Assembly (NCBI GenBank): GCA_963422565.1
Contig: OY730228.1
Span: forward strand, 37,315 to 101,314
DNA: 64,000 bases
From: Alphaproteobacteria bacterium
GTDB taxonomy: Bacteria > Pseudomonadota > Alphaproteobacteria > MPNO01
Direction of reading: 5' to 3'
The notes under the pieces were generated by a model. It saw only the letters and a program-made list of their open reading frames with translations, searched no databases and was not told the DNA's origin. The translations under genes were made by a program, and so were the position numbers. Shown piece by piece: positions 6,613 to 24,281 of the stretch (position 1 is the stretch's first letter; each line of letters opens with the position of its first letter).

Positions 6613-9123
6613 ATGACGGCGGAACCGGGTACCCAAAGCGGGCAGGGCGCGGCGGGCCGTTCGCTGCCGGGCGGCTATCGCTTCCGGATCGGCCTCGCTC
6701 TGCTGGTCATCGGCTGGGAGCGCCTCTGGCGTGCGCTGTGGCCGGTCCTCGTGCTCGCGGCGGTATTCGCGGCCCTGGCTTTGCTCGGGCTGCCGCCGCT
6801 GCTCCCCGGCTTTCTCCATGCGGCGCTGATCGCCGGCTTCGCATGCGGCTTCGCGGTGCTGCTCTGGTACGGGGCCGCGTCGCTCGTCCTGCCCCGGCGG
6901 GCCGAGGCGCGCCGCCGGATCGAGCTCGGCAGCGGTCTCGCGCACCGACCGCTTCAAGCCCTCGACGATCGCCTGGCCGAAGGCGTCGGCAGCGACGAAG
7001 CGCGGCGGCTCTGGCAGGCCCATCGGGCGCGGATGCGGGCGTTGGCGAAACGGCTCAGGGTCGGCTTTCCCGAGCCCGGCCTCGCCGCGCGCGATCCGCT
7101 CGCCCTGCGGTTTGCCGCGGCTCTGCTCATGTTTGTCGCCCTGTCCGGCGGCTGGTCCGAGGCACCGCAGCGGCTGCGCGCCGCGCTGTCACCCGATCTG
7201 CTTCCGGCGTCGACCGCGCCTCCTCCGGTTCTGCAGCTCTGGATCACGCCGCCCGCCTATACCGGTCTGGCCCCGATCTTCCCGAGCCGGATCGCCTCGG
7301 CGCGGCCCGAAGCGGCGGACCTCCCCGCGGAGGACGGCACCGAGGACGCCTCGGTCATACGGGTGCCCGCAGGGAGCGGCCTGACGGGGCGGCTGTCCGG
7401 CGGTTCCGGGCAGGCCTCCCTCGTCCTCGGCGAGGAGACGTTGCCCTTCGAGCCGGTCGATGCGCGCAACGCGGCGATCGAAGCGCCGATCGGCGCTTCG
7501 GGGCGGCTCGCGGTCCTCCAGGGGGAGCGGGTCCTTGCCGAATGGCGGGTCGCGCTGATCCCCGATCGCCCGCCGGAGATCGGCTTCACCGATCCGCCCG
7601 CCGCCACCCGGCGGCAGGCATTGTCGATCTCGTTCGCCGCGGCGGACGATTACGGGATCGAAGAGGTCGGGGCGGAGATCAGACGCAGCTACGAACGCGG
7701 CGCCGTGATCGGCAAGGAGGTTGAGGCGCTCGATCTGATCCTGCCCGACGCCGGCCCGAGGTCGGCGAAGGAGACCAGCTATCACGATTTGACGCCTCAT
7801 CGCTGGGCCGGCCTGCCCGTCGTCGTGCGGCTGTGGGCGGCCGACGCCCTCGGGCAGACCTCGTTCAGCGAGGACGCCGGTCTGGTCCTGCCCGAGCGCG
7901 ATTTCCGTCACCCCGTCGCGCGCGCGGTGATCGCCGAGCGCAGGCGGCTGGTGAACGAACCGGTTCCGCGTCGGTCGATCGCCGACGCCTTGGCCGGAAT
8001 CGCCGCCAGACCCTGGGAGTTCGGGCACGATATAACGGCGTTCCTGGCGCTCTCCAGCGCCCATGCCCGGCTAAGACATGACGGCAGCGGCGACGCGTTC
8101 GGCTCGGTCGGAGACCTTCTTTGGGAGACGGCGCTTGGGATCGAGGAGGGCCGGCTGTCGCTCGTGGAGCGCGAGCTGCGCCGGGCGCGCCGCGCCCTCG
8201 CCGAGGCCCTGGCGCGCGGCGCCCCGGACCAGGAGCTCGACCGGTTGATGGACGAGCTTCAACGGGCGGTCGAGCGCTTCGCCCGCGAGCTCGCCGAACG
8301 GCTTCGCCGCCGGCCCGACTCGACGCGGGACATGCAGTTCGACCCGCGAATGGGGCTCCTAGAAGCGACCGACCTGCGGCAGATGATGGAGCAGATGCGC
8401 GATCTGCTCCGGGCGGGCGCCCGCGACGCCGCCCGCGAGATGCTCGCCCGGTTGCAGAACCTCCTGGAGAATCTTCGCGCCGGGCGCCCGATGCCGATGA
8501 ACCCGCAGATGCAGGCCGGGAGCCAGGCTCTGAGCGACCTTCAGAAGCTGATCCGGCAGCAGACGGAGCTCATGAACCGAAGCTTCGGACAGTCCCGGTC
8601 CGGGCGCGGGCCGCAGCCGGGCGAATCGCGCAGCGGGGCGGCGACGCAGCGCGCGCTTCGCGAGGCGCTGGAGAGGCTGCGCGAGGCGTTGCGCCGGGCG
8701 GGCATGCTCGATCCTCGGGGCGGCGCCGAGCAGGCCATGGACGGGGCCGGTCGGAATATGGGCGATTCGGCCCGGGCGCTGGACCGCAACGCGCCCGGCG
8801 ACTCGGTCGGACCCCAGGGCCGCGCGATCGAAGCACTGCAACGCGCGGGCAGCGGGATCGTTCGGCAGATGATGGAACGGGTCGGGCGCGATAACGGAAT
8901 GGGGCTCGGCCAGCAGTTCGTGCCGGCGCAGCATCGCCGCGATCCGTTCGGCAGGTTCTCGCCGGACCGGGGAGGCGCGGACACACGGGACCTGACGATC
9001 CCCGATGCCGGTGCGGTTCGGCGCAGCCAGCGCATCCTCGAGGAGCTCCGGCATCGGTCCGGGCAACGCCAGCGGCCGTCTTACGAGCTGGACTATATCG
9101 AGCGATTGCTGCGCCGGTTTTGA
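6613..9123 (+). CDS. TIGR02302 / DUF4175 family membrane-anchored protein
   Basis: N-terminal TM helices (WERLWRALWP), WITPPAYTG, DDYG, LPERxFxHPxARAxI, C-terminal DPFGR..ELDYIERLL; follows lysA as usual. Confidence 0.88.
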   Translation: MTAEPGTQSGQGAAGRSLPGGYRFRIGLALLVIGWERLWRALWPVLVLAAVFAALALLGLPPLLPGFLHAALIAGFACGFAVLLWYGAASLVLPRRAEARRRIELGSGLAHRPLQALDDRLAEGVGSDEARRLWQAHRARMRALAKRLRVGFPEPGLAARDPLALRFAAALLMFVALSGGWSEAPQRLRAALSPDLLPASTAPPPVLQLWITPPAYTGLAPIFPSRIASARPEAADLPAEDGTEDASVIRVPAGSGLTGRLSGGSGQASLVLGEETLPFEPVDARNAAIEAPIGASGRLAVLQGERVLAEWRVALIPDRPPEIGFTDPPAATRRQALSISFAAADDYGIEEVGAEIRRSYERGAVIGKEVEALDLILPDAGPRSAKETSYHDLTPHRWAGLPVVVRLWAADALGQTSFSEDAGLVLPERDFRHPVARAVIAERRRLVNEPVPRRSIADALAGIAARPWEFGHDITAFLALSSAHARLRHDGSGDAFGSVGDLLWETALGIEEGRLSLVERELRRARRALAEALARGAPDQELDRLMDELQRAVERFARELAERLRRRPDSTRDMQFDPRMGLLEATDLRQMMEQMRDLLRAGARDAAREMLARLQNLLENLRAGRPMPMNPQMQAGSQALSDLQKLIRQQTELMNRSFGQSRSGRGPQPGESRSGAATQRALREALERLREALRRAGMLDPRGGAEQAMDGAGRNMGDSARALDRNAPGDSVGPQGRAIEALQRAGSGIVRQMMERVGRDNGMGLGQQFVPAQHRRDPFGRFSPDRGGADTRDLTIPDAGAVRRSQRILEELRHRSGQRQRPSYELDYIERLLRRF

Positions 9124-10611: not shown

Positions 10612-11334
10612 ATGAGAGTTCTGCGTTCGCTGCTCTTCGATGGCGCCTTCTACGGCCTGACCGTGCTGTTCGGCATCGTCGCGCTGCCCGCGCTGGCGGG
10701 CCCGAGGGCGCTGTCGGTTCGCGTGGGCCGGGTATGGGCGGGGGCGGTTCTCGCCTTGTTGGCGCGGACGGTCGGGATCACCTGCAGGATACGCGGCGAG
10801 GCGCACCGCCCGCCCGGCCCCGCGATCTACGCGTTCAAGCATCAATCCGCCTGGGAGACGCTGGTGCTCGTGCGCTTGTTCGCGGACCCCGCGATCATCG
10901 TCAAACGCGAGCTGTTCGGTATTCCGATTTTCGGGTGGTTCCTGGCCCGTCAGGGCATGATCCCGATCGATCGGCGCACCGGGGCGGCGGCGGTGCGCCG
11001 GACATGCGTCGCTGCGCGGGAACGGCTCGCCGACGGGCGCGACATCGTCGTTTTCCCCGAGGGAACGCGGACGCGGCCCGGCGCGGCCGGGCGCTACCGG
11101 CCGGGCGTCGCCGCGCTCTATCGCGACCTGTCGGTTCCGGTGGTACCAGTGGCCCTCGATTCTGGCCTCTACTGGCCGCGGCGTTCGTTCGTGAAGCGTC
11201 CGGGCTGCATCACCCTCGCGTTCCTGCCGCCGATCGCGCCCGGCCTCCCTGTCCGCGACTTCCTGCGGCGTCTCGAAGAGCGGATCGAGTCGGAGACCGC
11301 CAGGCTCCTCGAGGCCGAACCGGGTCCCGGCTGA
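10612..11334 (+). CDS. plsC: 1-acyl-sn-glycerol-3-phosphate acyltransferase family
   Basis: KHQSAWET (HxxxxD/E), PIDR, FPEGTR motifs. Confidence 0.9.
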   Translation: MRVLRSLLFDGAFYGLTVLFGIVALPALAGPRALSVRVGRVWAGAVLALLARTVGITCRIRGEAHRPPGPAIYAFKHQSAWETLVLVRLFADPAIIVKRELFGIPIFGWFLARQGMIPIDRRTGAAAVRRTCVAARERLADGRDIVVFPEGTRTRPGAAGRYRPGVAALYRDLSVPVVPVALDSGLYWPRRSFVKRPGCITLAFLPPIAPGLPVRDFLRRLEERIESETARLLEAEPGPG

Positions 11335-11349
11335 GGCCTCCGCCGAGCG

Positions 11350-12576
11350 CTACTCGGCCGCCTCGCGCATCGCGTAGGGGTTCTCGATCCCGAACAGCCG
11401 CGCGGCGTTCTCGCCCAGGATGTTGCGCTTCTGGCGTTCGCCCAGGAACGGGAGGTCCCAGATCACCGACGGCCCGTCGAAGTCCCAATGCGGCCAGTCC
11501 GAGCACCAAAGGAGCTGGGTGTCCGCATTGATCGCTTCCAACGTGGCTTCGAGAAGTTTCGGATGATGCGCCTCGAGAGGCTGGCTCGAGAAATACATGT
11601 CGGTGATGTACTCGCTCGGCCGCCGCTTCAGCAGCGGCGCCTCGGAGGACCGCATCATGTATTCCGCATCCAGGCGCTGCATCAGATAGGGCAGCCAGGC
11701 GAGCCCGCTCTCGATCCAGAGCACATCGAGGTTCGGGAACCGCTCCGGCAGGCCGTTTATCACCCAGTTCGTCATGTGGACGAGGTTGCAATGCACGAAG
11801 CTCAGCGCGTGCATGGAGAGGAACTTGTTGAGCTGCGCCATCGAGCCGTCGCTCCAGTTGAAGCCGGCATGGAAGGCGAGGGGCTGGTTGCGCTCCTCGA
11901 GCGCCCGATAGAGCGGCATGTAGGCGTTGTGATGGACCGGCCTGAAGCGCGTGCTGGTCACGGTGAAGCCCATGACGCCGGGCTTGCCGGCGAACTCCTC
12001 GACGAAGCGCGGGCACCGCTCGGGCGTGTTGAAGGGCAGATACAGCAAGCCCTTCATGCGCGGCTCCTCCGGCAGCACTTCCTCGGTCAGCCAGCGGTTG
12101 AACGCCCAGGCGAGCTCCACCTCCACCTCCGCTTGCGGGTGGGTTCCGAGCAGCAGCATCGGTGTCGGGAAGACCACCATGTAGTCGATGCCCATCGCGT
12201 CCATGGCCCGGCGGGTGAGCGTCACCTGTTTGTGCACGTCGGACGGCTCGACCGCCTCCTGCTGGCTCTGCTGGTGCGGGATACGGCCGTGGACATCCTG
12301 ATAGGCCATCCCCGGCTGTGCGTTGAGAAGGCCCGGCGGCGAGCCCACGCGGTCGCGGAAGGACGCGGCCATCTGCCGATAGACGTCGCTGTCGATCCGG
12401 TCGACGATCTCTCCCCAGAACGCCGTCTCGGTGATATGGGCGTCGACATCCACGATCAGCATGTCGTCGAAGCCCTTTTTCACCGCTTCGCGGGACGCGT
12501 GCGCGAGCACGTCGCGGGTGTCGGACTTGACGGTGATTTCCGGAAGGGAGTCGCTTGTTGCGCCGTGTATCGTCAT
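11350..12576 (-). CDS. Amidohydrolase_2 family metal-dependent hydrolase/decarboxylase
   Basis: VDVDAHITE, PLAFHAG, ERFPNL.VLWIESG..W, SDWPHWD. Confidence 0.88.
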   Translation of the reverse strand: MTIHGATSDSLPEITVKSDTRDVLAHASREAVKKGFDDMLIVDVDAHITETAFWGEIVDRIDSDVYRQMAASFRDRVGSPPGLLNAQPGMAYQDVHGRIPHQQSQQEAVEPSDVHKQVTLTRRAMDAMGIDYMVVFPTPMLLLGTHPQAEVEVELAWAFNRWLTEEVLPEEPRMKGLLYLPFNTPERCPRFVEEFAGKPGVMGFTVTSTRFRPVHHNAYMPLYRALEERNQPLAFHAGFNWSDGSMAQLNKFLSMHALSFVHCNLVHMTNWVINGLPERFPNLDVLWIESGLAWLPYLMQRLDAEYMMRSSEAPLLKRRPSEYITDMYFSSQPLEAHHPKLLEATLEAINADTQLLWCSDWPHWDFDGPSVIWDLPFLGERQKRNILGENAARLFGIENPYAMREAAE

Positions 12577-12657
12577 GAGCCATGGCCTCCGAGCGTCGTC
12601 TCGCCGATCGAACTATATCGGTAACGGCGTTACCGGGCCAGCACTGCCCGGACGCCG

Positions 12658-15600
12658 CTATTCCGCCGCCGCATGGGCCGCGCGCAGCGTGCGCCGCCGC
12701 TCGATAAGGCCCACGGTGATCGACATCATCGGCGGCACCACCGCCATCGTGAGAACGGCGGACAGAGACAGCCCGCCGACCACGACCGAGCCCAGACCCC
12801 GGTACAGCTCGGAGCCGGCGCCGGGGAACACCACCAGCGGGAGCATCCCGAAGACCGAGGTCAGCGTCGACATGAAAATCGGACGGACCCGGTTGTCGGT
12901 CGCGCGTTCGATGGCGGCGCCGGGCTCCATCCCCTCGTCGCGGATATGGTGCAACGTCTGATGGACGAGCAGGATCGCGTTGTTGACCACGATCCCGACC
13001 AGGATGACGAAGCCCAGCATCGTCAGCATGTCGAGCGGCTGGTTGACGTAGATGTTCAGGAGCGACAGCCCGGCGAGCCCGCCGGCGGCGGCGATCGGCA
13101 CCGACAGCATCACCACGAGCGGGTAGACGAAGCTCTCGAACAGGATCGCCATCACCAGATAGACGATGATGACGGCCAGGATCAGGTCCAGCACGATCTC
13201 GTTCCAAGTCACGGTCAGCTTGTCGGCCGAACCGGACATCCGGATGCGAACGCCGTCCGGAAGGCCCGCGCGCTCCAACGGCGCGATCACGTCTTCGCGA
13301 ATCTTCTCCATCGCGGCCTCGAGCGGCAGGGTCGCCGCCGGAGAGACCGACATCGTCACCGTCCTGACCCGATCTATGCGGCGGATCTGGGTCGGGCCGG
13401 CGGTCACCTCCACCTCGGACAGGCTGCGCACCGGGACGATGCGTCCGTCGCGCGTCACGACCGGGAGAGTAGAGATCGCCTGCGTCGTTTCGGTGTCGCG
13501 CGGCGGCCCCTTCAGCGTCAGGTCGACGCGTCGGCCGTCGACATTGATCTCGGCGATACGGATCCCGTCGTTGAACGCGTCGACCGATTGGCCGAGCTCG
13601 CGCGCCGACAGCCCGTTATCGGCGAGCTTGATGCGATCGGGCACGACGCGGACCTCCGGCTCGCCCAGCGTCAACGAAGGCCGGGGCCGGGTCCGGTGTC
13701 CCTCCGGCGGCGGCAGCGCGCCCATGGTCCTGAAGAACACCTGGCGGCCGACATCGAAGAGGGTCGGCAGGTCGGGGCCGGTAATGTCGATGTCGATCGA
13801 CCGGCCGCTGCCGATGGAGCGGCCGAACAGCGACGGTTGAAAGACGAAGCCGAATGTGCCGGGCTCGCTCCGCACCGGATCCTGGAGGATCGGGATCAGC
13901 TCGGCGGCGCGCTGTTCGTCGACATGACGTCCGGCGATGAAGGCGCGGCCGCGCAGGGCCACATAGAAGAACCGGTCGATGATCTTCTCGGCTTCGGGAT
14001 GGTCGGGCGGGTGGGCGTCGCCCGCCTCGGCGATCGCCGCGTCGGACCAGTGCTTGCGGGTCGCGTCCGCGACGTTGCGGGCGATCCTCTCCGTGGTGTC
14101 CAGGTTGTAGCCCGCGGGCGGGAGCACGAAGCCGATCACGAAGTTGCGGTTGCCGACGGGAAGATAGTCGAGCTTGGGAAGGAACGCGGCGGCGAACGTC
14201 CCGGCGGCGGCGGTGATCGCGGCGACGACGGCGAGGGCGAGCGCCTTGCGGCGCACGACCAGCCGGGCGAAGCCGCGCCAGAACCCGGCGAACGCGCGGG
14301 CGAACGGGTCGATCACCGGCAGGCGCCGCATCTGGCCAGCTTCGCTTATACCCCGGCCGAGGACGCGGTTGGAGAGGGCCGGTATCAGCGTTGCCGAGAC
14401 GATGAGCGACAGCGTGACCGAGACCGAAATCGCCACCGCGATGTCTCGGAACAGCTGGCCCACCTCGAGCTCCATGATCAGGATCGGGATGAACACCATG
14501 ACGGTGGTCAACGCCGAGACGAGCACCGCGGGCCACACCTGGGCGGTGCCCTCGAGCGCCGCCCGGTGCCGCGGCAATCCTTCCTGGCGGAGGCGGTAGA
14601 TGTTTTCCAGCACGACGATGGCCGCATCCACCACCATGCCCACGGCGAAGGCGATGCCGGCCAGGCTGATCACGTTGATCGAGCGGCCGAGCAGCGCCAT
14701 GGCGACGAAGGAGCCCACTACCGAGACCGGAATCGCGACCCCGATCACCACCGTCGGCCGCCAGGAGCGCAGGAACAGCAGCAGCACGATCACGGCGAGG
14801 CAGCCGCCGAGATAGATGTTCTGCATCACCAGATCGATCGACGAATTGATGTACTCGGTCTCGTCGTAGACCTGTTGGACGATCAGGCCCTGGCGGGCGA
14901 TCGGGCCTTCGCGCATTTCGTTTACGGCCTGGCGGACCAGCTCCATCGTCTCGATGACGTTGGCGCCCTGCTCGCGGGTGAGGTTGAGCGCGAGCGCCCG
15001 GACTCCGTTGGAAGTGAGTCTGGCGCGGATCTCCTTGTAGGCGAACGCGACATTGGCAATGTCTCCCACGGTCACGCGGCCCAGTCGGTTCCCCGTGGAG
15101 TCGCTGCGGAGCACGACGGCGCGCACCTGGTCGGGAGTCGTGAGATCGCCCTCGGTGCGGACGACATAGCGCCGCTTGCCCTCGGAGACGTCGCCGCCGG
15201 TGATCGAGGCGTTGGCCGCCCTCAGCCGCGCGACCACCTCGCCCACGGTCATCCGGTAGCGCGCCAGCCGCGCCGGATCGATCAGGACCTGCATCTCGCG
15301 CTCGGTCTCGCCGAAGATGTTGACACCGGCGACGCCCGGAATCCGCTCGAACCGCTCCTGGACGACATCGCGCAGGAAGTCGCCGTAGGTGATCATGTCC
15401 CGCTGGTTTCCCATTTCGCGCGTGAACACGAACCAGGCGATCGCATTGTCCTCGGTGCCCGAGGTTCCGAGGGTCGGCTCCTCGGCTTCCTCCGGGTAGC
15501 CGGTGACGCGGTCGAGCCGGTTGGCGACCAGCAGAAGCGCGCGGTCGAAATTGACTCCCGGCGAGAACTCCAGGGTGATCTTGCCCTGGCCGTGGCTGGC

Positions 15601-15849
15601 CTCGCTCAACATGCGGTTGACGCCTTCGAGGCCCTTGAGCTCGTCCTCCTGTGCGGTGAGGATCTCGCGTTCGACCTCGGCCGGCGCCGCACCGCGCCAG
15701 GCCGTCGTCACGATGATCACCGGCTGGCGGACGTCGGGCGCCATCTGGATCGGGATCCGCTGCAGCGCGACATAGCCGAACAGGAGGATCATCAGCACCA
15801 GGGCGACGACCGCCATGGGTCGCTCGATCGAGAGGCGGATCGGATTCAT
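12658..15849 (-). CDS. RND efflux transporter permease subunit (AcrB/AcrD/AcrF family)
   Basis: 1063 aa; AVGMVVDAAIVVLENIYR, GIVVNNAILLV, RVRPIFMSTLTSVFGMLPL. Confidence 0.95.
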   Translation of the reverse strand: MNPIRLSIERPMAVVALVLMILLFGYVALQRIPIQMAPDVRQPVIIVTTAWRGAAPAEVEREILTAQEDELKGLEGVNRMLSEASHGQGKITLEFSPGVNFDRALLLVANRLDRVTGYPEEAEEPTLGTSGTEDNAIAWFVFTREMGNQRDMITYGDFLRDVVQERFERIPGVAGVNIFGETEREMQVLIDPARLARYRMTVGEVVARLRAANASITGGDVSEGKRRYVVRTEGDLTTPDQVRAVVLRSDSTGNRLGRVTVGDIANVAFAYKEIRARLTSNGVRALALNLTREQGANVIETMELVRQAVNEMREGPIARQGLIVQQVYDETEYINSSIDLVMQNIYLGGCLAVIVLLLFLRSWRPTVVIGVAIPVSVVGSFVAMALLGRSINVISLAGIAFAVGMVVDAAIVVLENIYRLRQEGLPRHRAALEGTAQVWPAVLVSALTTVMVFIPILIMELEVGQLFRDIAVAISVSVTLSLIVSATLIPALSNRVLGRGISEAGQMRRLPVIDPFARAFAGFWRGFARLVVRRKALALAVVAAITAAAGTFAAAFLPKLDYLPVGNRNFVIGFVLPPAGYNLDTTERIARNVADATRKHWSDAAIAEAGDAHPPDHPEAEKIIDRFFYVALRGRAFIAGRHVDEQRAAELIPILQDPVRSEPGTFGFVFQPSLFGRSIGSGRSIDIDITGPDLPTLFDVGRQVFFRTMGALPPPEGHRTRPRPSLTLGEPEVRVVPDRIKLADNGLSARELGQSVDAFNDGIRIAEINVDGRRVDLTLKGPPRDTETTQAISTLPVVTRDGRIVPVRSLSEVEVTAGPTQIRRIDRVRTVTMSVSPAATLPLEAAMEKIREDVIAPLERAGLPDGVRIRMSGSADKLTVTWNEIVLDLILAVIIVYLVMAILFESFVYPLVVMLSVPIAAAGGLAGLSLLNIYVNQPLDMLTMLGFVILVGIVVNNAILLVHQTLHHIRDEGMEPGAAIERATDNRVRPIFMSTLTSVFGMLPLVVFPGAGSELYRGLGSVVVGGLSLSAVLTMAVVPPMMSITVGLIERRRTLRAAHAAAE

Positions 15850-15874
15850 CCCGGCGACCTCGCTCCGTCCATCG

Positions 15875-17422
15875 TCAGCCCCCCGCGCCCTTCGGCGCGC
15901 CGGTCACGCGCACGGGGCCTCCCATGCCCAAGGTCTCGTTTCCGTGCACCACGAGGTTCTGGCCGGGTGCCACGCCGTCTTGGACCACGAACCGGGGGCC
16001 GATGCCGTCGCCAAGCCGAACCTCGACCCGCCGCGCCAAGCCGCCCTCGACGACATAGACGACCGTGTCCGAGCCGCTGCGAACGACCGCGTCCTTGTGC
16101 ACCGTCGCGACCATGCGGCCCGCGGCCACGGGGACCAGCAGCGTCACCGACTGATCGTCCGCCAGCGCCTGCTCCGTTCCGTCGAAGCGCGGCGCGAACC
16201 GGACGGTACGGGTACGGGTTCGCGCGTTCTCGCGGGGGATTACCGCCCGGACGACGGCCCGGTGGCCGGTGCCGTCGTCGAGCCTCATCTCCACTTCGGT
16301 GCCGGGTCCGAGCGTCGACAGCCGGTCGGAGGGAATTTCGGCCTCGGCCTCGAGCTCGGTATCGTTGAGCAGGCTGACCACGCGCGCACCGAGCCCGAGA
16401 TAGGCGCCGATCTCCGTATGCTTTTCGATAACCACGCCCGGGAACGGCGCCTTGACTTGGGTGTCGGCGAGATCGATCTCCGCCTGCCGCAGCATCGCCC
16501 GTGCCTCGTCGAGCTGGGCGCGCCGCTCGTCGAGCGTTCCCTTGCGCGACCGCACGTCCTGCTCGAGGTCCTCGTAGCGCGCGCGGGAGAAGGCGGCGGA
16601 CCTGCGCAATCGATCGAGGCGGTTCAGTTCCCGGCGCTTCTTCTCGTACTCCGCATTCGCGGCGGAGACCATGGCCGTCATCCGCTCGACCACCGCGGCT
16701 TGGCGGTCGCGCGCGGTGGCGAGCCGCTGCCGTGCGACGACGGCGAGGACCGCGCCCCGCGCGACCCGGTCGCCGACCTCGACTCGCATCTCCTCCACCA
16801 CGCCCCGGACTTCGGACGAGATGATCCCGTTCTGACGCGCGACCAGACGTCCGATCACGGGGACGGTCCGCTTCATCCGTTCGGTGATCACCGCATCCAG
16901 CCGGACCGTCGCCGGCGGCCGCCCGCCGCCGCCTCCAGGACGGGCGCCTCCGCCCTGGAAGAACGTGCGGATTTCACCCCCGTCGAGCGTGCCGCTCCCG
17001 TCCTTGTCGATCTTGTCGAAATTGGCGGCGAGCGGGCCGCCGGCCTCGTTGCGATCGAGGACGCCGTCGCCGTCGGCGTCGGCCATGCGCGCCCGGTCCG
17101 AGAGTGGAGGGGGGGAGGCGGGCGCGGTCCGGCCCTCCGCTTGGGCCGGGGTGGCGGCGGCCGTCTCCGGACAGCCGCCGTCCCGGAAGAACCAGCGGAT
17201 CTCCGCGCCGTCGAGGGTTTCGGACTTGTCGCAATCCATCTGATCGAAATTGTCGGCGAGCGGCCCGCGCGCCTCGTCCCGGTCGATGACGCCGTTCGCG
17301 TCGGTATCCAGCCCCTTGGCGCGATCCGACAACGTTCTGTCCTGGGCGGCCGCGGCGACCGAGGCGAACAGCAGAGCGGCGATCCCCCACGAGATCGGGG
17401 CCCGAGTCCAAGACGGCTTCAT
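15875..17422 (-). CDS. RND periplasmic adaptor (MFP) with N-terminal four-EF-hand extension
   Basis: Signal peptide (..ASVAAAA/QD); loops DTDANGVIDRDE, DCDKSETLDGAE, DADGDGVLDRNE, DKDGSGTLDGGE; then MFP core (ISSEVRGVVEEMRVEVGDRV, coiled hairpin, VKAPFPGVV, TRT.TVR); 25-nt gap to the RND gene. Confidence 0.9.
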   Translation of the reverse strand: MKPSWTRAPISWGIAALLFASVAAAAQDRTLSDRAKGLDTDANGVIDRDEARGPLADNFDQMDCDKSETLDGAEIRWFFRDGGCPETAAATPAQAEGRTAPASPPPLSDRARMADADGDGVLDRNEAGGPLAANFDKIDKDGSGTLDGGEIRTFFQGGGARPGGGGGRPPATVRLDAVITERMKRTVPVIGRLVARQNGIISSEVRGVVEEMRVEVGDRVARGAVLAVVARQRLATARDRQAAVVERMTAMVSAANAEYEKKRRELNRLDRLRRSAAFSRARYEDLEQDVRSRKGTLDERRAQLDEARAMLRQAEIDLADTQVKAPFPGVVIEKHTEIGAYLGLGARVVSLLNDTELEAEAEIPSDRLSTLGPGTEVEMRLDDGTGHRAVVRAVIPRENARTRTRTVRFAPRFDGTEQALADDQSVTLLVPVAAGRMVATVHKDAVVRSGSDTVVYVVEGGLARRVEVRLGDGIGPRFVVQDGVAPGQNLVVHGNETLGMGGPVRVTGAPKGAGG

Positions 17423-17625
17423 ATCAACCTGCTTTCCCGGTCGCCGCTCCGATGCCGCCCCGGTCGCACGGGAACCCGAGCCATGGGGCGTTCTCCGTCC
17501 GGCCGCATCGGCCGCGCCGCGCCTCCGACAAACGGGACGCACGACCGAGTATCCCGCAACTTCACGACTCGGGAGGCCGGAATCCGTCGCCGCCCCCTGC
17601 GTGGAAACGAGTCCGGGCTTCGGAG

Positions 17626-18750
17626 CTAATTCTTGCGCTCGAGAACATGAAATCCGCGGACGCGGTCGAGGAGATATATCAGCCCCCGCGAATCTGTGGT
17701 CACGTCGTTGGCGCAGACCCGGTCGGACCCCGGCGGCGGGTCCGGCAGGAAATGCGCGGTCTCCTTCGGGGCGTGCGGGTCCGCGATGTCGATGAGGCGC
17801 AGCCCCTGAGCGAACCAGGCGAACGGAATCTCGGTGCCGGTGACGATTTCGCTGGGCTGATGGCAGCCGGTCATCGGTATCTGGGGGGCGCCGTCGGGAT
17901 CGATCCCGTCGACCTGGAAGGTCGAGATCGGTATGGGCCGGGTCTCGTCGGTCACGTCGAAGACCCACATCAGGGCTGGAGGGCTCGGGCGGAGCTTCGC
18001 GACATCCTCGTCGGCGACGATCATGATGCTCTTGTTGCGGATCCGGAAGGGAATCGGCAGCGCGGTGTGCTGCGGGTGCGCATAGGCCGGGCTGATCTCG
18101 TAGCGCGAGATCATTTCCGGCTTCGACATGTCGTCGATCCCGAGAATTATGACGCCGTGATGCCAGTAGCTGGTGAACAGCCGGTCGCCCAGCCGCAGCG
18201 GGTGGTGGCATCTGGGGGCGGGGCCGCCGCTCCAGGAATATTCCTCGCCGCCGGCTTTCCATTGGCCGGGGATCCACCAGCGCCCGACTTCCTGGGGCCG
18301 CGCTGGATCGGCGAGGTCCAGGATCATCATGATATTGCCGACATAACCCGCGACCGTCGGCGAGATATAGGCGTAGCGGCCGTCGAAATCGAAGCGATGG
18401 ACGCCGCGGCCTTCGGTTTCCCAGGTCGTGATTCGACGGGGATTGGCCGGATCCTCCACGTCGTAGATGCCGAGGCCCGGCTGGAAGCCGTCCGGCTGCG
18501 CGCCGCCGAGCCGTTCGTGGTTGACCAGCATCACGCCGTTCTGCGCCCGCACCTTGTGGGAATGGGTGTTGGGCGGCATGCCGATCCTGGAAAGGAGCCT
18601 GGGATGTTTCGGATCGGCCACGTCGTAGATCGAGGTGCCGTAGGGCGACGCCATATGACCGATATAGGCGGTCGTCCCTTCGACGCGAATCTGTCCGCCG
18701 CCGGGACAGTCGACATGGGATACCGGTTCGATTCCGTTGGCGCTCGCCAC
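17626..18750 (-). CDS. LVIVD-repeat beta-propeller protein, His-rich, no signal peptide
   Basis: Repeats IYDVADPKHP, IYDVEDPANP, ILDLADPARP, VFDVTDETRP, LIDIADPHAP. Confidence 0.85.
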   Translation of the reverse strand: MASANGIEPVSHVDCPGGGQIRVEGTTAYIGHMASPYGTSIYDVADPKHPRLLSRIGMPPNTHSHKVRAQNGVMLVNHERLGGAQPDGFQPGLGIYDVEDPANPRRITTWETEGRGVHRFDFDGRYAYISPTVAGYVGNIMMILDLADPARPQEVGRWWIPGQWKAGGEEYSWSGGPAPRCHHPLRLGDRLFTSYWHHGVIILGIDDMSKPEMISRYEISPAYAHPQHTALPIPFRIRNKSIMIVADEDVAKLRPSPPALMWVFDVTDETRPIPISTFQVDGIDPDGAPQIPMTGCHQPSEIVTGTEIPFAWFAQGLRLIDIADPHAPKETAHFLPDPPPGSDRVCANDVTTDSRGLIYLLDRVRGFHVLERKN

Positions 18751-18777
18751 CGGGCTCTCCTCTCGCTGTCGGGCGGA

Positions 18778-19803
18778 TCAGGCCGTCGTCCGCGGCCGGC
18801 GCCCCTCATGAAGGTCTCGTCCCGCGACCAGGGCGAGAATCTTGCCGTCGGCCATCGACCGCCGCAGGTTCCAGAATCCGCAATCCGGATGGACGTAGCG
18901 GATGCGGTCGGGGCCCAGCGCGTCGGCGGCGCGGGCGATCCGCCGCGCCACGATGTCGGGGGCCTCGATCTCGGTCGCTTTGACGTCGACGACCCCGATC
19001 CCCAGACCGATCTCGGGGCGGAGGTCCCGGAAGACCGCGAGCTCTTCGGCCGGGCGATGCGCCATCTCGCAGATCACGTGATCGGCATGAAGCGCGTTGA
19101 GATAGGCGAGCATCGGCGCCCACCGCGCGCCCTTCTGCGAGACCTGGCCGCCGTAATTGCCGAAACAGAGATGCACCGCCGGCGTCGTCGGGACCGCGTC
19201 GAGGACGATATTCATCACCCGCGCCGCCCATTCCGCCTCCTCGGGCGCGCCGGGAAGGTTGGCCTCGTCGATCTGGACGATATCGGCGTCGAGCCTGGCG
19301 ACCTGCTCGGCGAGCACCGACGCGATCGCCTCGGCGAGGGCAACCCGGTCCCCGTAATGGGCGTCGATCACCGTCTTGGCGAGCATATGCGGGCCGGTCA
19401 TGGCGAATTTGAACGGGCGGGAGGCGAGCGACTTGCCCCGCCGGCAGGCAGCCGCGAGGTCGAGCATTCCGGCGGTCACCGGGCCGTCGACCACCGCTGC
19501 GGGCCGGCTGCGAAACCCCATCGTCGGCTGGGCCTCGAAGGCGGCGGTCTCGGTGAACGTCATCCCGGGGCGGACGCCGCCCATCGGGTGGATGAAATAC
19601 TCGATCATCCCGTTGGTCTGGGGGTGGTCGGGATTGAAACGCCCGAACTCGCCCTCGCAGACCACGTCGATGCCGGCCGCTTCCTGGAGATGGACGAACA
19701 TCCGCGTCGCGTCGTCGACGGCTTCGGCGCTCGGCTGGGCGCGGAGCCAGTCGGGCCAAGGATAGGAGCCTACCAATGTCGTCTTGATTTCGGGCTCAGC
19801 CAT
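18778..19803 (-). CDS. Cobalamin-independent methionine synthase II (MetE C-terminal-like, single barrel) family Zn enzyme
   Basis: TTLVGSYP, IVQIDEA, VHLCFGN (HxC), GVVDVK, HPDCG Zn ligands. Confidence 0.87.
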   Translation of the reverse strand: MAEPEIKTTLVGSYPWPDWLRAQPSAEAVDDATRMFVHLQEAAGIDVVCEGEFGRFNPDHPQTNGMIEYFIHPMGGVRPGMTFTETAAFEAQPTMGFRSRPAAVVDGPVTAGMLDLAAACRRGKSLASRPFKFAMTGPHMLAKTVIDAHYGDRVALAEAIASVLAEQVARLDADIVQIDEANLPGAPEEAEWAARVMNIVLDAVPTTPAVHLCFGNYGGQVSQKGARWAPMLAYLNALHADHVICEMAHRPAEELAVFRDLRPEIGLGIGVVDVKATEIEAPDIVARRIARAADALGPDRIRYVHPDCGFWNLRRSMADGKILALVAGRDLHEGRRPRTTA

Positions 19804-21758: not shown

Positions 21759-23990
21759 TCATTTCCAGCATTCGACGAGGACGGTGAACGCCTTCGCCGC
21801 CGAGGCGATGTCCTCCGGTGCGAGGGCGCCGCCGGACGGTGCCGTTTCGTAGGCGATGCCTTCCGCGTCCAGGAACCTCCGCGCGGCGCCCGCGCCGATC
21901 GCGAAGTTGACGTTCTGCGGGATGTCGCCGGTCGTTCTGGCGACCTTCAGCGCATCCAGTTTCGAGACCACCACGCCCACCGCGTTCCCGGCCGAGTCCA
22001 GCACCGGCCCGCCGCTGTTCCCGCGCTGGACCGGCGCGGTGATCTGGAACCGGAGCCGATCCTCGCCCGGCCCGGCGAGCGCGCTTACATTGCCCGCGGT
22101 GACGTTCATCTGCGGGGCCAGCGTGCCGGGGAGCGGATAGCCGGCCACGACCACCGGCGCGCCCGGTCGGACGCCGCGCCCCTGTCGAAAGGCGGCGACC
22201 GCCCCGCCCGGCGGCCCCTCGAGCAAGGCGAGGTCCGCCGCCTCGTCGCGCGCCGCGACGGCGGCGGGGTCGGCGGGCCCGACGCGCATCTCGGCGCATC
22301 CGCGCACGACATGCGCGTTGGTGAGGACATGGCCGTCGGCGCTCACCCGGAAGCCTGAGCCGGTCGATACCCGCTTGAGCGCCCGTCGGGCACCGTCGGC
22401 GAGAGTGGACAGAAGCGCCCGTTCCAGACCGTCCGACAGCGTGCCGTCGACCGGAAGCCCGGCGGCGCGCTGGAACGCCCGGATCGCCGCCCGGGTCCGC
22501 GCCCCGAGCAGGCCGTCCGCCGCGCCGGGGACATGGCCGAGCCGCGCCAGGGACCGTTGCACCGCCGCCACCCGCCGCCGCGTATCACCGCCGTCCGTCG
22601 CGCCGGGCGCCGGGGAGGAGGGCGCCGCACCGGAATTCGGCCGCCAGTCCCGCGCCAGCCGCTGGGCGCGCGCGAGATCCCGGCGGGAAAGCGATCGCGC
22701 GACCCTGTCGCGGTTCCGCTTGGCCATGTCGTATCTGTCTTTATCGTCGCCGTCGGAGAGGCCGGAAGCGCCGAGATTCAGCCACATATGCGCCAGAACG
22801 AGGTCCCGGGGCACGCCCAGGCCGTTATCGTACATGACCCCGAGATTGAACTGAGCGGAGGCGTCGCCCTGCTCGGCGGCGCGGCGAAACCATTTCACGG
22901 CCTCGGCATGGTCCCGGAGCACGCCCCGGCCGTGTCTGTACATGGCCCCGAGATTGAACTGAGCGGAGGCGTCGCCCTGCTCGGCGGCGCGGCGAAACCA
23001 TTTCACGGCCTCGGCATGGTCCCGGGGCACGCCCAGGCCGTGTCTGTACATGAGCCCGAGATTGTTCTGAGCGGAGGCGTCGCCCTGCTCGGCGGCGCGG
23101 CGAAACCATTTCACGGCCTCGGCATGGTCCCGGGGCACGCCCAGGCCGTGTCTGTACATGAGCCCGAGATTGTTCTGAGCGGAGGCGTTGCCCTGCTCGG
23201 CGGCGCGGCGATACCATTTCACGGCCTCGGCATGGTCCCGGAGCACGCCCCGGCCGTGTCTGTACATGGCCCCGAGATTGAACTGAGCGGAGGCGTTGCC
23301 CTGCTCGGCGGCGCGGCGAAACCATTTCACGGCCTCGGCATGGTCCCGGGGCACGCCCAGGCCGTGTCTGTACATGAGCCCGAGATTGTTCTGAGCGGAG
23401 GCGTTGCCCTGCTCGGCGGCGCGGCTAAACCATTTCATGGCCTCGGCATGGTCCCGGGGCACGCCCAGGCCGTGTCTGTACATGAGCCCGAGATTGTTCT
23501 GAGCGGAGGCGTTGCCCTGCTCGGCGGCGCGGCGATACCATTTCACGGCCTCGGCATGGTCCCGGGGCACGCCCAGGCCGTGTCTGTACATGAACCCGAG
23601 ATTGTTCTGAGCGGAGGCGTCGCCCTGCTCGGCGGCGCGGCGAAACCATTTCACGGCCTCGGCATGGTCCCGGGGCACGCCCAGGCCGTGTCTGTACATG
23701 AACCCGAGATTGTTCTGAGCGGAGGCGTCGCCCTGCTCGGCGGCGCGGCGAAACCATTTCACGGCCTCGGCATGGTCCCGGGGCACGCCCCGGCCGTGTC
23801 TGTACATGAACCCGAGATTGTTCTGAGCGGATGCGTCGCCGCTCTCCGCTCTCTCCAGCAGGGAGCGCAGCGCCGGGTCAGCCTCCCCGATGGGCTGGGC
23901 CGTCGCGGGAGAGACGACCGCCGCCGCCAGCATGAGCAGGGCGGCGACCAGGGCCGATCCGGGGGTTCGCAATGCGGTTCGCTGTCGCAT
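21759..23990 (-). CDS. Secreted Sel1-repeat / peptidoglycan-binding / trypsin-like serine protease
   Basis: Signal peptide (..SPATA/QP); 10 Sel1 repeats; PG-binding domain VQRSLARLG..DGLLGARTRAAIRAFQ..GLPVDG; protease triad TNAHVV, DLALL, GNSGGP. Confidence 0.92.
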   Translation of the reverse strand: MRQRTALRTPGSALVAALLMLAAAVVSPATAQPIGEADPALRSLLERAESGDASAQNNLGFMYRHGRGVPRDHAEAVKWFRRAAEQGDASAQNNLGFMYRHGLGVPRDHAEAVKWFRRAAEQGDASAQNNLGFMYRHGLGVPRDHAEAVKWYRRAAEQGNASAQNNLGLMYRHGLGVPRDHAEAMKWFSRAAEQGNASAQNNLGLMYRHGLGVPRDHAEAVKWFRRAAEQGNASAQFNLGAMYRHGRGVLRDHAEAVKWYRRAAEQGNASAQNNLGLMYRHGLGVPRDHAEAVKWFRRAAEQGDASAQNNLGLMYRHGLGVPRDHAEAVKWFRRAAEQGDASAQFNLGAMYRHGRGVLRDHAEAVKWFRRAAEQGDASAQFNLGVMYDNGLGVPRDLVLAHMWLNLGASGLSDGDDKDRYDMAKRNRDRVARSLSRRDLARAQRLARDWRPNSGAAPSSPAPGATDGGDTRRRVAAVQRSLARLGHVPGAADGLLGARTRAAIRAFQRAAGLPVDGTLSDGLERALLSTLADGARRALKRVSTGSGFRVSADGHVLTNAHVVRGCAEMRVGPADPAAVAARDEAADLALLEGPPGGAVAAFRQGRGVRPGAPVVVAGYPLPGTLAPQMNVTAGNVSALAGPGEDRLRFQITAPVQRGNSGGPVLDSAGNAVGVVVSKLDALKVARTTGDIPQNVNFAIGAGAARRFLDAEGIAYETAPSGGALAPEDIASAAKAFTVLVECWK
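22770..23849 (-). repeat. Ten tandem 108-bp Sel1-coding units, near-identical at DNA level
   Basis: Unit starts (minus strand) at 23849, 23741, 23633, 23525, 23417, 23309, 23201, 23093, 22985, 22877. Confidence 0.97.
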
Positions 23991-24281
23991 GCCTTCGACG
24001 CCTTCCGTCGTGGATGGCATAAACCGCCGGAGACAGTAGCCGCGCCATGTCGGGAAATCCAACGGCGTATCCCCGTTATCCCCGTTTCCGTCGGCCCCGG
24101 GTCGGGGGCGGGAATTCCCACCCTCGATGTTGTCGTCTCCCGACAAGCGCCGAAGAGGAGCCCCGAGCCATCGTCCCGATTCCGGTCGCGGGCCGATCGA
24201 TCTCGACATCCGGAGGCGCCGGCATCGACATGTCTCGACGGGCGTGCGGCCCCGAGGCGGATGCCGACCCCGCGCCTGTGC

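Follow-up and report, generated by a model that had tools for sequence, protein, structure and literature searches.

Periplasmic adaptor subunits of resistance-nodulation-division (RND) transporters are well studied as parts of drug pumps, and some of them, such as CusB and ZneB, carry a metal-binding element. The N-terminal region of CusB, for instance, reportedly hands Cu(I) to its pump. To our knowledge, CusB and ZneB do not use EF-hands, and we know of no described adaptor that bears them. Here, we describe a gene at positions 15875 to 17422 (minus strand) of a 64,000-nucleotide stretch of contig OY730228.1 from an Alphaproteobacteria bacterium, the whole of which we call the window. The gene encodes an RND adaptor in which the signal peptide is followed by two EF-hand pairs. 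A full-text literature search, supplementary files aside, found no published description of an EF-hand-bearing RND adaptor, in line with the first-pass annotation of this sequence, which knew of no characterized EF-hand membrane fusion protein (MFP). Databases name these proteins plainly as "efflux RND transporter periplasmic adaptor subunit." The EF-hand pair, which we call the module, looks like a portable periplasmic metal-binding unit.

EF-hands that act outside the cytoplasm have been described in other settings. EfhP of Pseudomonas aeruginosa is reportedly a periplasmic EF-hand sensor. CaBP of Caulobacter vibrioides is presented as a periplasmic EF-hand sensor in the accessible part of its report (PMC13171946), and the available excerpts on calsymin of Rhizobium etli describe a stand-alone periplasmic or secreted EF-hand protein. 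All three act outside the cytoplasm, as here, but by their descriptions they stand alone and are not fused to a transporter. A further comparison is lanmodulin of Methylorubrum extorquens (PDB 6mi5 and 8fns). In the accessible sections of a lanmodulin survey (PMC10232371), members are recognized by four EF hands, by 12 to 13 residues between adjacent hands instead of the typical ~25, and by at least one Pro at position 2 of a loop, and the protein is said to pass from disorder to order upon metal binding. As far as those sections go, the survey was restricted to proteins of <200 residues and would therefore miss EF-adaptor fusions.

The adaptor gene and its parts are as follows, with the confidence of AlphaFold2 models given as the predicted local distance difference test (pLDDT).

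15875..17422, minus strand: EF-hand-bearing RND periplasmic adaptor gene, 515 amino acids, stop codon at 15875-15877 (translation, Pfam, NCBIfam TIGR01730, third-position GC).
17345..17422, minus strand: putative signal peptide, residues 1-26 (read from the sequence; shared by homologues; pLDDT <50).
17171..17332, minus strand: EF-pair module 1, residues 31-84, with Cys64 (position 2 of loop 2) and Cys84 (sequence; pLDDT about 90).
17273..17308, minus strand: EF loop 1, residues 39-50, DTDANGVIDRDE (loop pattern).
17201..17236, minus strand: EF loop 2, residues 63-74, DCDKSETLDGAE (loop pattern; Glu at position 6).
17105..17170, minus strand: Pro/Ala-rich inter-module linker, residues 85-106 (predicted disordered; pLDDT <50 at residues 87-101).
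16943..17104, minus strand: EF-pair module 2, residues 107-160, both Cys lost (sequence, duplication).
17045..17080, minus strand: EF loop 3, residues 115-126, DADGDGVLDRNE (loop pattern).
16973..17008, minus strand: EF loop 4, residues 139-150, DKDGSGTLDGGE (loop pattern; under the best Pfam EF-hand match).
16907..16942, minus strand: Gly-rich linker, residues 161-172 (predicted disordered; pLDDT <50 at residues 158-167).
15878..16906, minus strand: adaptor core, residues 173-515 (NCBIfam, AlphaFold2 model, Foldseek).

The first-pass annotation had proposed two duplicated modules with paired EF loops, separated by a Pro/Ala linker and joined to the core by a Gly-rich one, and all of these parts hold up. 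The protein contains four canonical 12-residue EF loops, whose ligands stand at positions 1, 3, 5, and 12 and whose position 8 is hydrophobic. They start at residues 39, 63, 115, and 139; shuffling either the whole protein or residues 28-162 yielded three or more such loops in none of 20,000 trials, with a maximum of two. The Pfam models EF-hand_6, EF-hand_7, and EF-hand_1 match above their cut-offs at residues 135-158, over loop 4 (E 3.7e-9). Modules 31-84 and 107-160 align without gaps at 34 of 54 identical positions, and their BLOSUM62 score of 170 compares with 26 ± 5 (maximum 50) in 2000 shuffles. In an AlphaFold2 model of residues 28-162, which drew on 31 aligned homologues, the EF part consists of two helix-loop-helix pairs, each folded on its own and with a strand bridge (pLDDT 81-92). 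The linker that connects them has a pLDDT of <50, the predicted template modeling (pTM) score is 0.44, and the full-length model agrees. Each module is thus modeled as an autonomous folding unit.

The module has a signature that extends across relatives. We compared 80 loci from one-genome-per-species contigs, all of them from genomes other than the window's, and a set of 92 modules from 81 adaptors was picked by loop pattern; the pattern itself demands Asp at position 1 and Glu or Asp at position 12 and restricts positions 3, 5, 8, and 9. The distance from loop to loop inside the module is 12 residues in all 92. Position 12 is always Glu, even though the pattern admitted Asp, and loop 2 invariably has Asp at position 9, where seven residues were admitted. 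Loop 1 mostly reads Asp-x-Asn-x-Asn-Gly, and the connector is nearly invariant, consisting of Ala, Gly or Arg, Gly-Pro-Leu, two variable residues, and Asn-Phe. Because the ligand positions are near-invariant in these modules, their metal binding is probably under selection.

The signature also includes a Cys pair, made up of position 2 of loop 2 and the 10th residue after that loop. Both cysteines are present in 74 modules and both absent in 18, and a single one occurs in none; the window protein retains the pair in module 1 (Cys64/Cys84) and has lost it in module 2. Because the two residues covary perfectly, which fits the oxidizing periplasm, they likely form a disulfide that staples loop 2 to the outgoing helix. 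What had been a guess at a disulfide from a single sequence is, therefore, strongly backed by covariation.

Among solved structures, lanmodulin is the nearest relative by sequence. A search of the PDB with the domain profile ranked it best (8fns, E 1.1e-9; 6mi5, E 1.7e-9), in an ungapped alignment over both loops of a module, versus E 2e-3 for calmodulin. The window protein resembles lanmodulin in being periplasmic, in the 12-residue spacing of the two loops within a module, and in having four EF hands, although its relatives have two, four, or six. Between modules, the spacing is wider: EF2 and EF3 lie 40 residues apart (30 to 47 in relatives) on a disordered linker, so that there is no single three-helix bundle as in lanmodulin. 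Pro at position 2 is found in none of the four window loops and in none of 186 loops in the 81 adaptors, and the NCBIfam LanM model NF053806 gives the window protein 55.9 bits, under its cut-off of 135. Moreover, unlike lanmodulin, the module has a predicted disulfide and mostly Asn at positions 3 and 5 of loop 1, and the EF domain is joined to a 343-residue adaptor.

Fold comparison is less informative. VIA-align matched the domain to EF pairs of polcalcin, parvalbumin, and the calmodulin lobes at Z 5 to 5.9 and to lanmodulin at Z 4.4 (rank 36), and a Foldseek search of the EF-domain model against the PDB returned no match at E <= 1e-3. Because the matches are generic, fold cannot separate lanmodulin from other EF pairs here.

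The first-pass annotation had likened the arrangement to the two lobes of calmodulin, and in this respect it does not stand. The likeness consists of four EF loops in two pairs. The loops within a pair, however, are 12 residues apart and not about 25 (the latter figure from the accessible part of PMC10232371), the pairs are linked by a disordered Pro/Ala stretch and not by a helix, relatives carry one to three pairs in a number that shifts often on the tree, and the module also occurs on unrelated proteins. Judged by its sequence, the module is lanmodulin-like in spacing yet neither a lanmodulin nor calmodulin-like. It is also the more general result of this analysis: a compact EF pair, probably disulfide stapled, that amounts to half a lanmodulin in spacing.

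Module number is labile between close relatives (one, two, or three). Across the 80 loci, adaptors have six loops in 4 cases, four in 30, two in 18, and none in 26; two further adaptors are cut at a contig end, as are two of the 26 without loops. A quick tree of adaptor cores was made (80 rows, no bootstrap; L053 was omitted, its core being shorter than 280 residues), on which the four-loop state changes 16 times (at least 13 of these forced by well-supported branches), the two-loop state 10 times, the six-loop state 4 times, and the absence of loops just twice. Sister adaptors on this tree differ by one module. Separately, a second EF-type adaptor copy in one genome (G064; L091, 2755-4072, plus strand) looks broken, with module 1 out of frame with the rest and a core that ends early, which points to a pseudogene or else to a faulty assembly.

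The module is found beyond adaptors as well. A search of 1.84 billion representative proteins with the EF domain gave 1076 matches at E <= 1e-3 and 109 at E <= 1e-10, and 58 of the best 150 matches have the signature module. Metallo-beta-lactamase (MBL)-fold hydrolases carry one or two modules directly behind the signal peptide, in a cluster of 55 members annotated merely as "MBL fold metallo-hydrolase." DctP binding proteins of tripartite ATP-independent periplasmic (TRAP) transporters carry one module in the same place (clusters of 16 and 11), and P0154, a membrane-anchored adaptor of another clade, carries three Cys-less modules at its C terminus. In addition, a 96-residue open reading frame (ORF) in locus L089 (2896-3186, plus strand) comprises nothing but a signal peptide and one module, which has four Cys, and ends right after the latter.

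P0133, P0160, P0191, P0198, and P0154: proteins with the portable module.

Because the MBL and DctP modules resemble the adaptor modules of one marine lineage (39 to 42 of 55 positions identical) more than the window's (24 to 31), the distribution points to shuffling of the module within a lineage. Its behavior is that of a building block that moves among several periplasmic proteins, in lineages that are mainly uncultured. We also considered the modules as a replacement for a lipid anchor. Adaptors of the EF-less sister clade, however, start with a signal peptide of this type too and likewise have no lipobox, and we therefore abandoned the idea.

The close spacing of the loops, the labile module number, and the presence of the module on unrelated proteins and alone argue for a portable unit, most likely always Ca2+ loaded, and not for a two-lobe gate. 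Our preferred explanation, which we hold tentatively, is that the modules are a general, constitutively Ca2+-loaded accessory that stabilizes, spaces, or loosely tethers its host protein, as opposed to a calmodulin-type clamp that switches the pump. After export through Sec, the modules would bind Ca2+, the default ligand of such EF loops, and become oxidized. They would then remain metal loaded as rigid beads on a flexible arm by the membrane-proximal end of the adaptor, where the beads would stabilize, space, or loosely tether the adaptor near its inner-membrane partner. The pump would probably act as a tripartite, AcrAB-TolC-like exporter that uses one of two TolC-like genes elsewhere in the genome. 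Seawater contains about 10 mM Ca2+, which would saturate ordinary EF-hands.

Several points weigh against this explanation. The habitat is known from record titles alone, several of which indicate a marine source. Loop 2 of the window protein may bind metal weakly, because its position 6 is Glu instead of the usual Gly (71 of 92 modules) or Asn (20 of 92). The conserved ligand residues would suit a sensor equally as well as a structural site. Several genomes contain EF-type and EF-less adaptor copies together, which suggests a distinct role for the EF-type. The independent C-terminal fusion in P0154 may indicate that EF modules are linked specifically to adaptors, which would favor a pump-related role. 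Finally, the tethering role is a guess.

Some of these points favor the calcium-gated pump of the first-pass annotation, in which the modules sense periplasmic Ca2+ and switch pump assembly or activity, either as they fold and unfold or when they dock on adaptor or permease. A gate would account for EF loops that are canonical and strongly conserved, for their position in the model at the membrane-proximal end of the adaptor, near the permease (adaptor geometry being general knowledge), for the second, independent EF fusion on the other adaptor clade (P0154), and for the coexistence of both adaptor types in some genomes. Nevertheless, it sits poorly with a module number of one to three among close relatives, with linkers that are disordered in the models, with the module's presence on unrelated periplasmic proteins and alone, and with the lack of a clade-specific permease change (see below). 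Also, in marine hosts, which several record titles suggest, the periplasm would be expected to contain Ca2+ at a high and stable level. Periplasmic EF-hand sensing itself is described, reportedly for EfhP and also for Caulobacter CaBP, going by the accessible part of PMC13171946. On balance, we regard a calcium gate as unlikely, though it deserves consideration.

The position of the module raises another alternative, namely, that it aids export or folding. The modules would be unfolded in the reducing, low-Ca2+ cytoplasm and fold by Ca2+ binding and disulfide formation outside the Sec channel, which would keep the precursor export competent and stop it from sliding back. RTX repeats provide an analogy, given their Ca2+-driven folding in type I secretion, but we know of no precedent for such an aid among Sec substrates, which speaks against the proposal. 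In its favor, periplasmic proteins of three unrelated kinds have the module immediately after the signal peptide, a position that an export aid would explain; the module's variable copy number is tolerated, and its disulfide cysteines covary. Lanmodulin, its nearest solved relative by sequence, becomes ordered on metal binding, according to the accessible part of PMC10232371. However, the C-terminal triple module of P0154 is unfit for an N-terminal ratchet, and a stand-alone module protein exists. We consider this alternative improbable, and the constitutively loaded accessory remains our preferred explanation.

The rest of the window protein is a true periplasmic adaptor, encoded in an RND efflux unit of two genes. 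Its minus-strand frame is stop free over 515 residues (15875-17422) and stays open further upstream, as far as 18277. The ATG at 17422 is likely the start codon because third-position GC drops from 0.88 in the gene to 0.52 in the in-frame upstream extension, because a separate minus-strand ORF occupies 17626-18750 (third-position GC 0.83), and because homologues begin at the same signal peptide. The G+C content of the whole window is 69.6%. The putative signal peptide, already recognized at first pass, has a basic start, a hydrophobic stretch, and an Ala-rich end, and a lipobox Cys is absent. A promoter and terminator scan of 11200-18900 found no signal above chance.

The core, which the first-pass annotation had called a complete MFP core, proves to be so. 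NCBIfam TIGR01730 (RND adaptor) matches residues 177-506 over model positions 5-321 of 322 with 159.4 bits (cut-off 94.9), and Pfam HlyD_3 and HlyD_D23 match within residues 185-411. The full-length AlphaFold2 model shows a four-domain adaptor, with a core at pLDDT of about 85 to 97 composed of membrane-proximal, beta-barrel, and lipoyl domains and a hairpin of two helices of ~40 residues (231-271 and 280-319). Foldseek matched this core to AcrA, MacA, TMexC, and MexA at E 1e-24 to 1e-21. The window adaptor shares with AcrA/MexA/MacA-type adaptors the four-domain core, the alpha-hairpin, periplasmic export, and an adjacent RND permease gene, but it lacks a lipobox Cys and has ~145 more N-terminal residues, which form the two modules. 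It shows just 16 to 20% identity to solved adaptors, of which TriA-TriB (6vej) and MexJ (20yy) are the closest by sequence.

One could object that the fusion is an artifact, in which an EF-hand gene and an adaptor gene, separate in reality, were run together by mis-assembly or a frameshift. This reading is refuted. Precomputed EF-hand Pfam matches and adaptor families occur together in 111 of the 120 best protein clusters (of the other nine, five were aligned, each with one module), the EF-adaptor architecture is continuous in 52 of the 80 loci, and the order to which the window belongs has the EF domain in 44 of 78 genomes (E <= 1e-10). Contigs from four public sequencing runs, belonging to three studies, were also compared with the gene, and wherever they cover it, it is free of stops and indels, so that nothing of the kind separates the EF part from the MFP core, a break that the first-pass annotation had considered. 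A 7449-nt contig identical to the window is present in two of the runs, and these two runs may be the source of the window. In a run from the second study, contigs covered 30 of 30 bins, including the junction of EF part and core, with zero differences. A run from the third study covered 22 of 30 bins (none at 16730-17163), with seven substitutions and a 1-nt deletion upstream of the start codon. Among the public runs listed for this sequence, none was from RNA.

In all four runs, two short stretches of the window, 15894-15912 and 17263-17286 (19 and 24 nt), are also matched by a high-depth foreign contig. There, the two are joined by the same 32 letters, and this is probably a chance or repeat match from some other abundant sequence.

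Within a single alphaproteobacterial order, two families have conserved the EF-bearing unit, mostly with one copy per genome. By family, the EF domain is present in 18 of 19 genomes of the first, 23 of 26 of the fourth, 2 of 25 of the third, 0 of 5 of the second, and 0 of 2 of the fifth, mostly as a single match per genome. By comparison, the adaptor core occurs in 65 of the 78 genomes, including 23 of 25 in the family that mostly lacks the EF part. In a class-wide sample, 7 of 401 genomes have the EF domain, with the window's own counted. That genome is a single contig of 3.44 Mb, 97% complete, in which the EF domain occurs once; it encodes two full RND permeases, two adaptors, and two TolC-family (OEP) proteins, the genes for the latter lying far from the pump. 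According to record titles, the genomes of the 80 loci all belong to Alphaproteobacteria and are metagenome assembled or single cell, with no cultured isolate, and are assigned to Defluviicoccus, Rhodospirillales, UBA830, and MarineAlpha3, with one each from Paracoccaceae, Hyphomicrobiaceae, and Methyloligellaceae and three labeled just Pseudomonadota or Proteobacteria.

The second gene of the unit encodes the permease.

12658..15849, minus strand: partner RND permease, 1063 amino acids, starting 25 nt past the adaptor stop codon (Pfam ACR_tran, 684.7 bits; NCBIfam).

An RND permease adjoins the adaptor in 80 of 81 loci, and no other neighbor cluster occurs in more than 15 of the 81; the flanking genes in the window are housekeeping genes. 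A candidate fusion of adaptor and permease in L037 and L055 was discarded, as a stop codon is present. The window permease scores as AcrB-type (hydrophobe/amphiphile efflux) rather than CusA/CzcA, with 606.6 bits for the multidrug-type model NF033617 (cut-off 1250) versus 310 for TIGR00914 (cut-off 701.45). Its best solved relatives are of the multidrug type (8yr0, 7wlv, MdtB, CmeB, MexB, and AcrB).

These scores bear on a further possibility, delivery of the metal to the pump, which the first-pass annotation had also entertained. The modules would capture Ca2+ or a lanthanide and hand it over for export. In support of this, the domain profile has lanmodulin as its top PDB match, there is some LanM signal with a conserved Asp at loop position 9, and a La-induced, CusA-like RND operon is reported from Methylobacillus flagellatus in the accessible part of PMC9988556. 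The permease, however, fits multidrug-type models better than CusA/CzcA, and the adaptor reaches 106.5 bits against a CzcB/NccB (TIGR00999) cut-off of 319.3; by fold, its core matches ZneB (E 1.8e-18) and CusB (E 4.5e-15). The loops lack the position 2 Pro, and their LanM score is under the cut-off. Furthermore, the window's genome has no methanol/ethanol-type pyrroloquinoline quinone (PQQ) dehydrogenase above cut-off (28.6 versus 480), and the module occurs on non-transport proteins. Metal delivery to this pump is, therefore, very improbable.

The permease itself shows an unusual residue pattern in an alignment of the window permease, Escherichia coli AcrB, and 72 locus permeases. In AcrB numbering, Asp407 and Arg971 are kept, Asp408 is replaced by Ala, Lys940 by Asn, and Thr978 by Ser. 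Asp408 and Lys940 are among what we take to be the proton-relay residues of AcrB, and the window permease may, thus, have an unusual proton-relay set. The Asp408Ala change is shared by 46 of 46 partners of EF-type adaptors and Lys940Asn by 72 of 72 related permeases, whereas the five best solved relatives of the Lys940 segment all retain Lys. A comparison of 47 permeases of EF-type adaptors with 24 EF-less partners found no clade-specific indel and one near-fixed residue difference; at the level of these alignments, the permease shows no adaptation to the modules. Docking predictions of the EF domain with four Ca against the periplasmic loops of the permease (residues 33-337 and 558-878) scored 0.00 twice, with controls that came out unfolded, and are neutral.

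A broader version of the switch idea would make the module a portable extracytoplasmic metal switch of marine Alphaproteobacteria, placed on RND adaptors, TRAP binding proteins, and MBL hydrolases and gating export here. Assembly or activity of the host protein would depend on periplasmic Ca2+ or a trivalent metal, and the permease would in addition differ in its relay (D408A, K940N). We rate this proposal as rather unlikely, yet the consequences would be considerable. If the module were a true Ca2+ or rare-earth switch, efflux and uptake would be regulated from outside the cytoplasm, and a very small metal-binding scaffold would be on offer; if gating were true, this would be the first metal-gated RND adaptor to use EF-hands. 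If the modules are merely structural, they still clearly illustrate how domains are shuffled among periplasmic proteins.

Finally, three other genes in the window were noted. The gene upstream of the adaptor (17626-18750, minus strand) encodes a product of 374 amino acids with weak LVIVD/beta-propeller matches below or at cut-off and no evident signal peptide, and it is not a conserved neighbor of the pump pair. At 21759-24209 (minus strand), a protein of 816 amino acids combines at least 10 Sel1 repeats with peptidoglycan-binding and trypsin-like peptidase domains. At 6613-9123 (plus strand) lies a full-length DUF4175 protein of 836 amino acids (696.5 bits).

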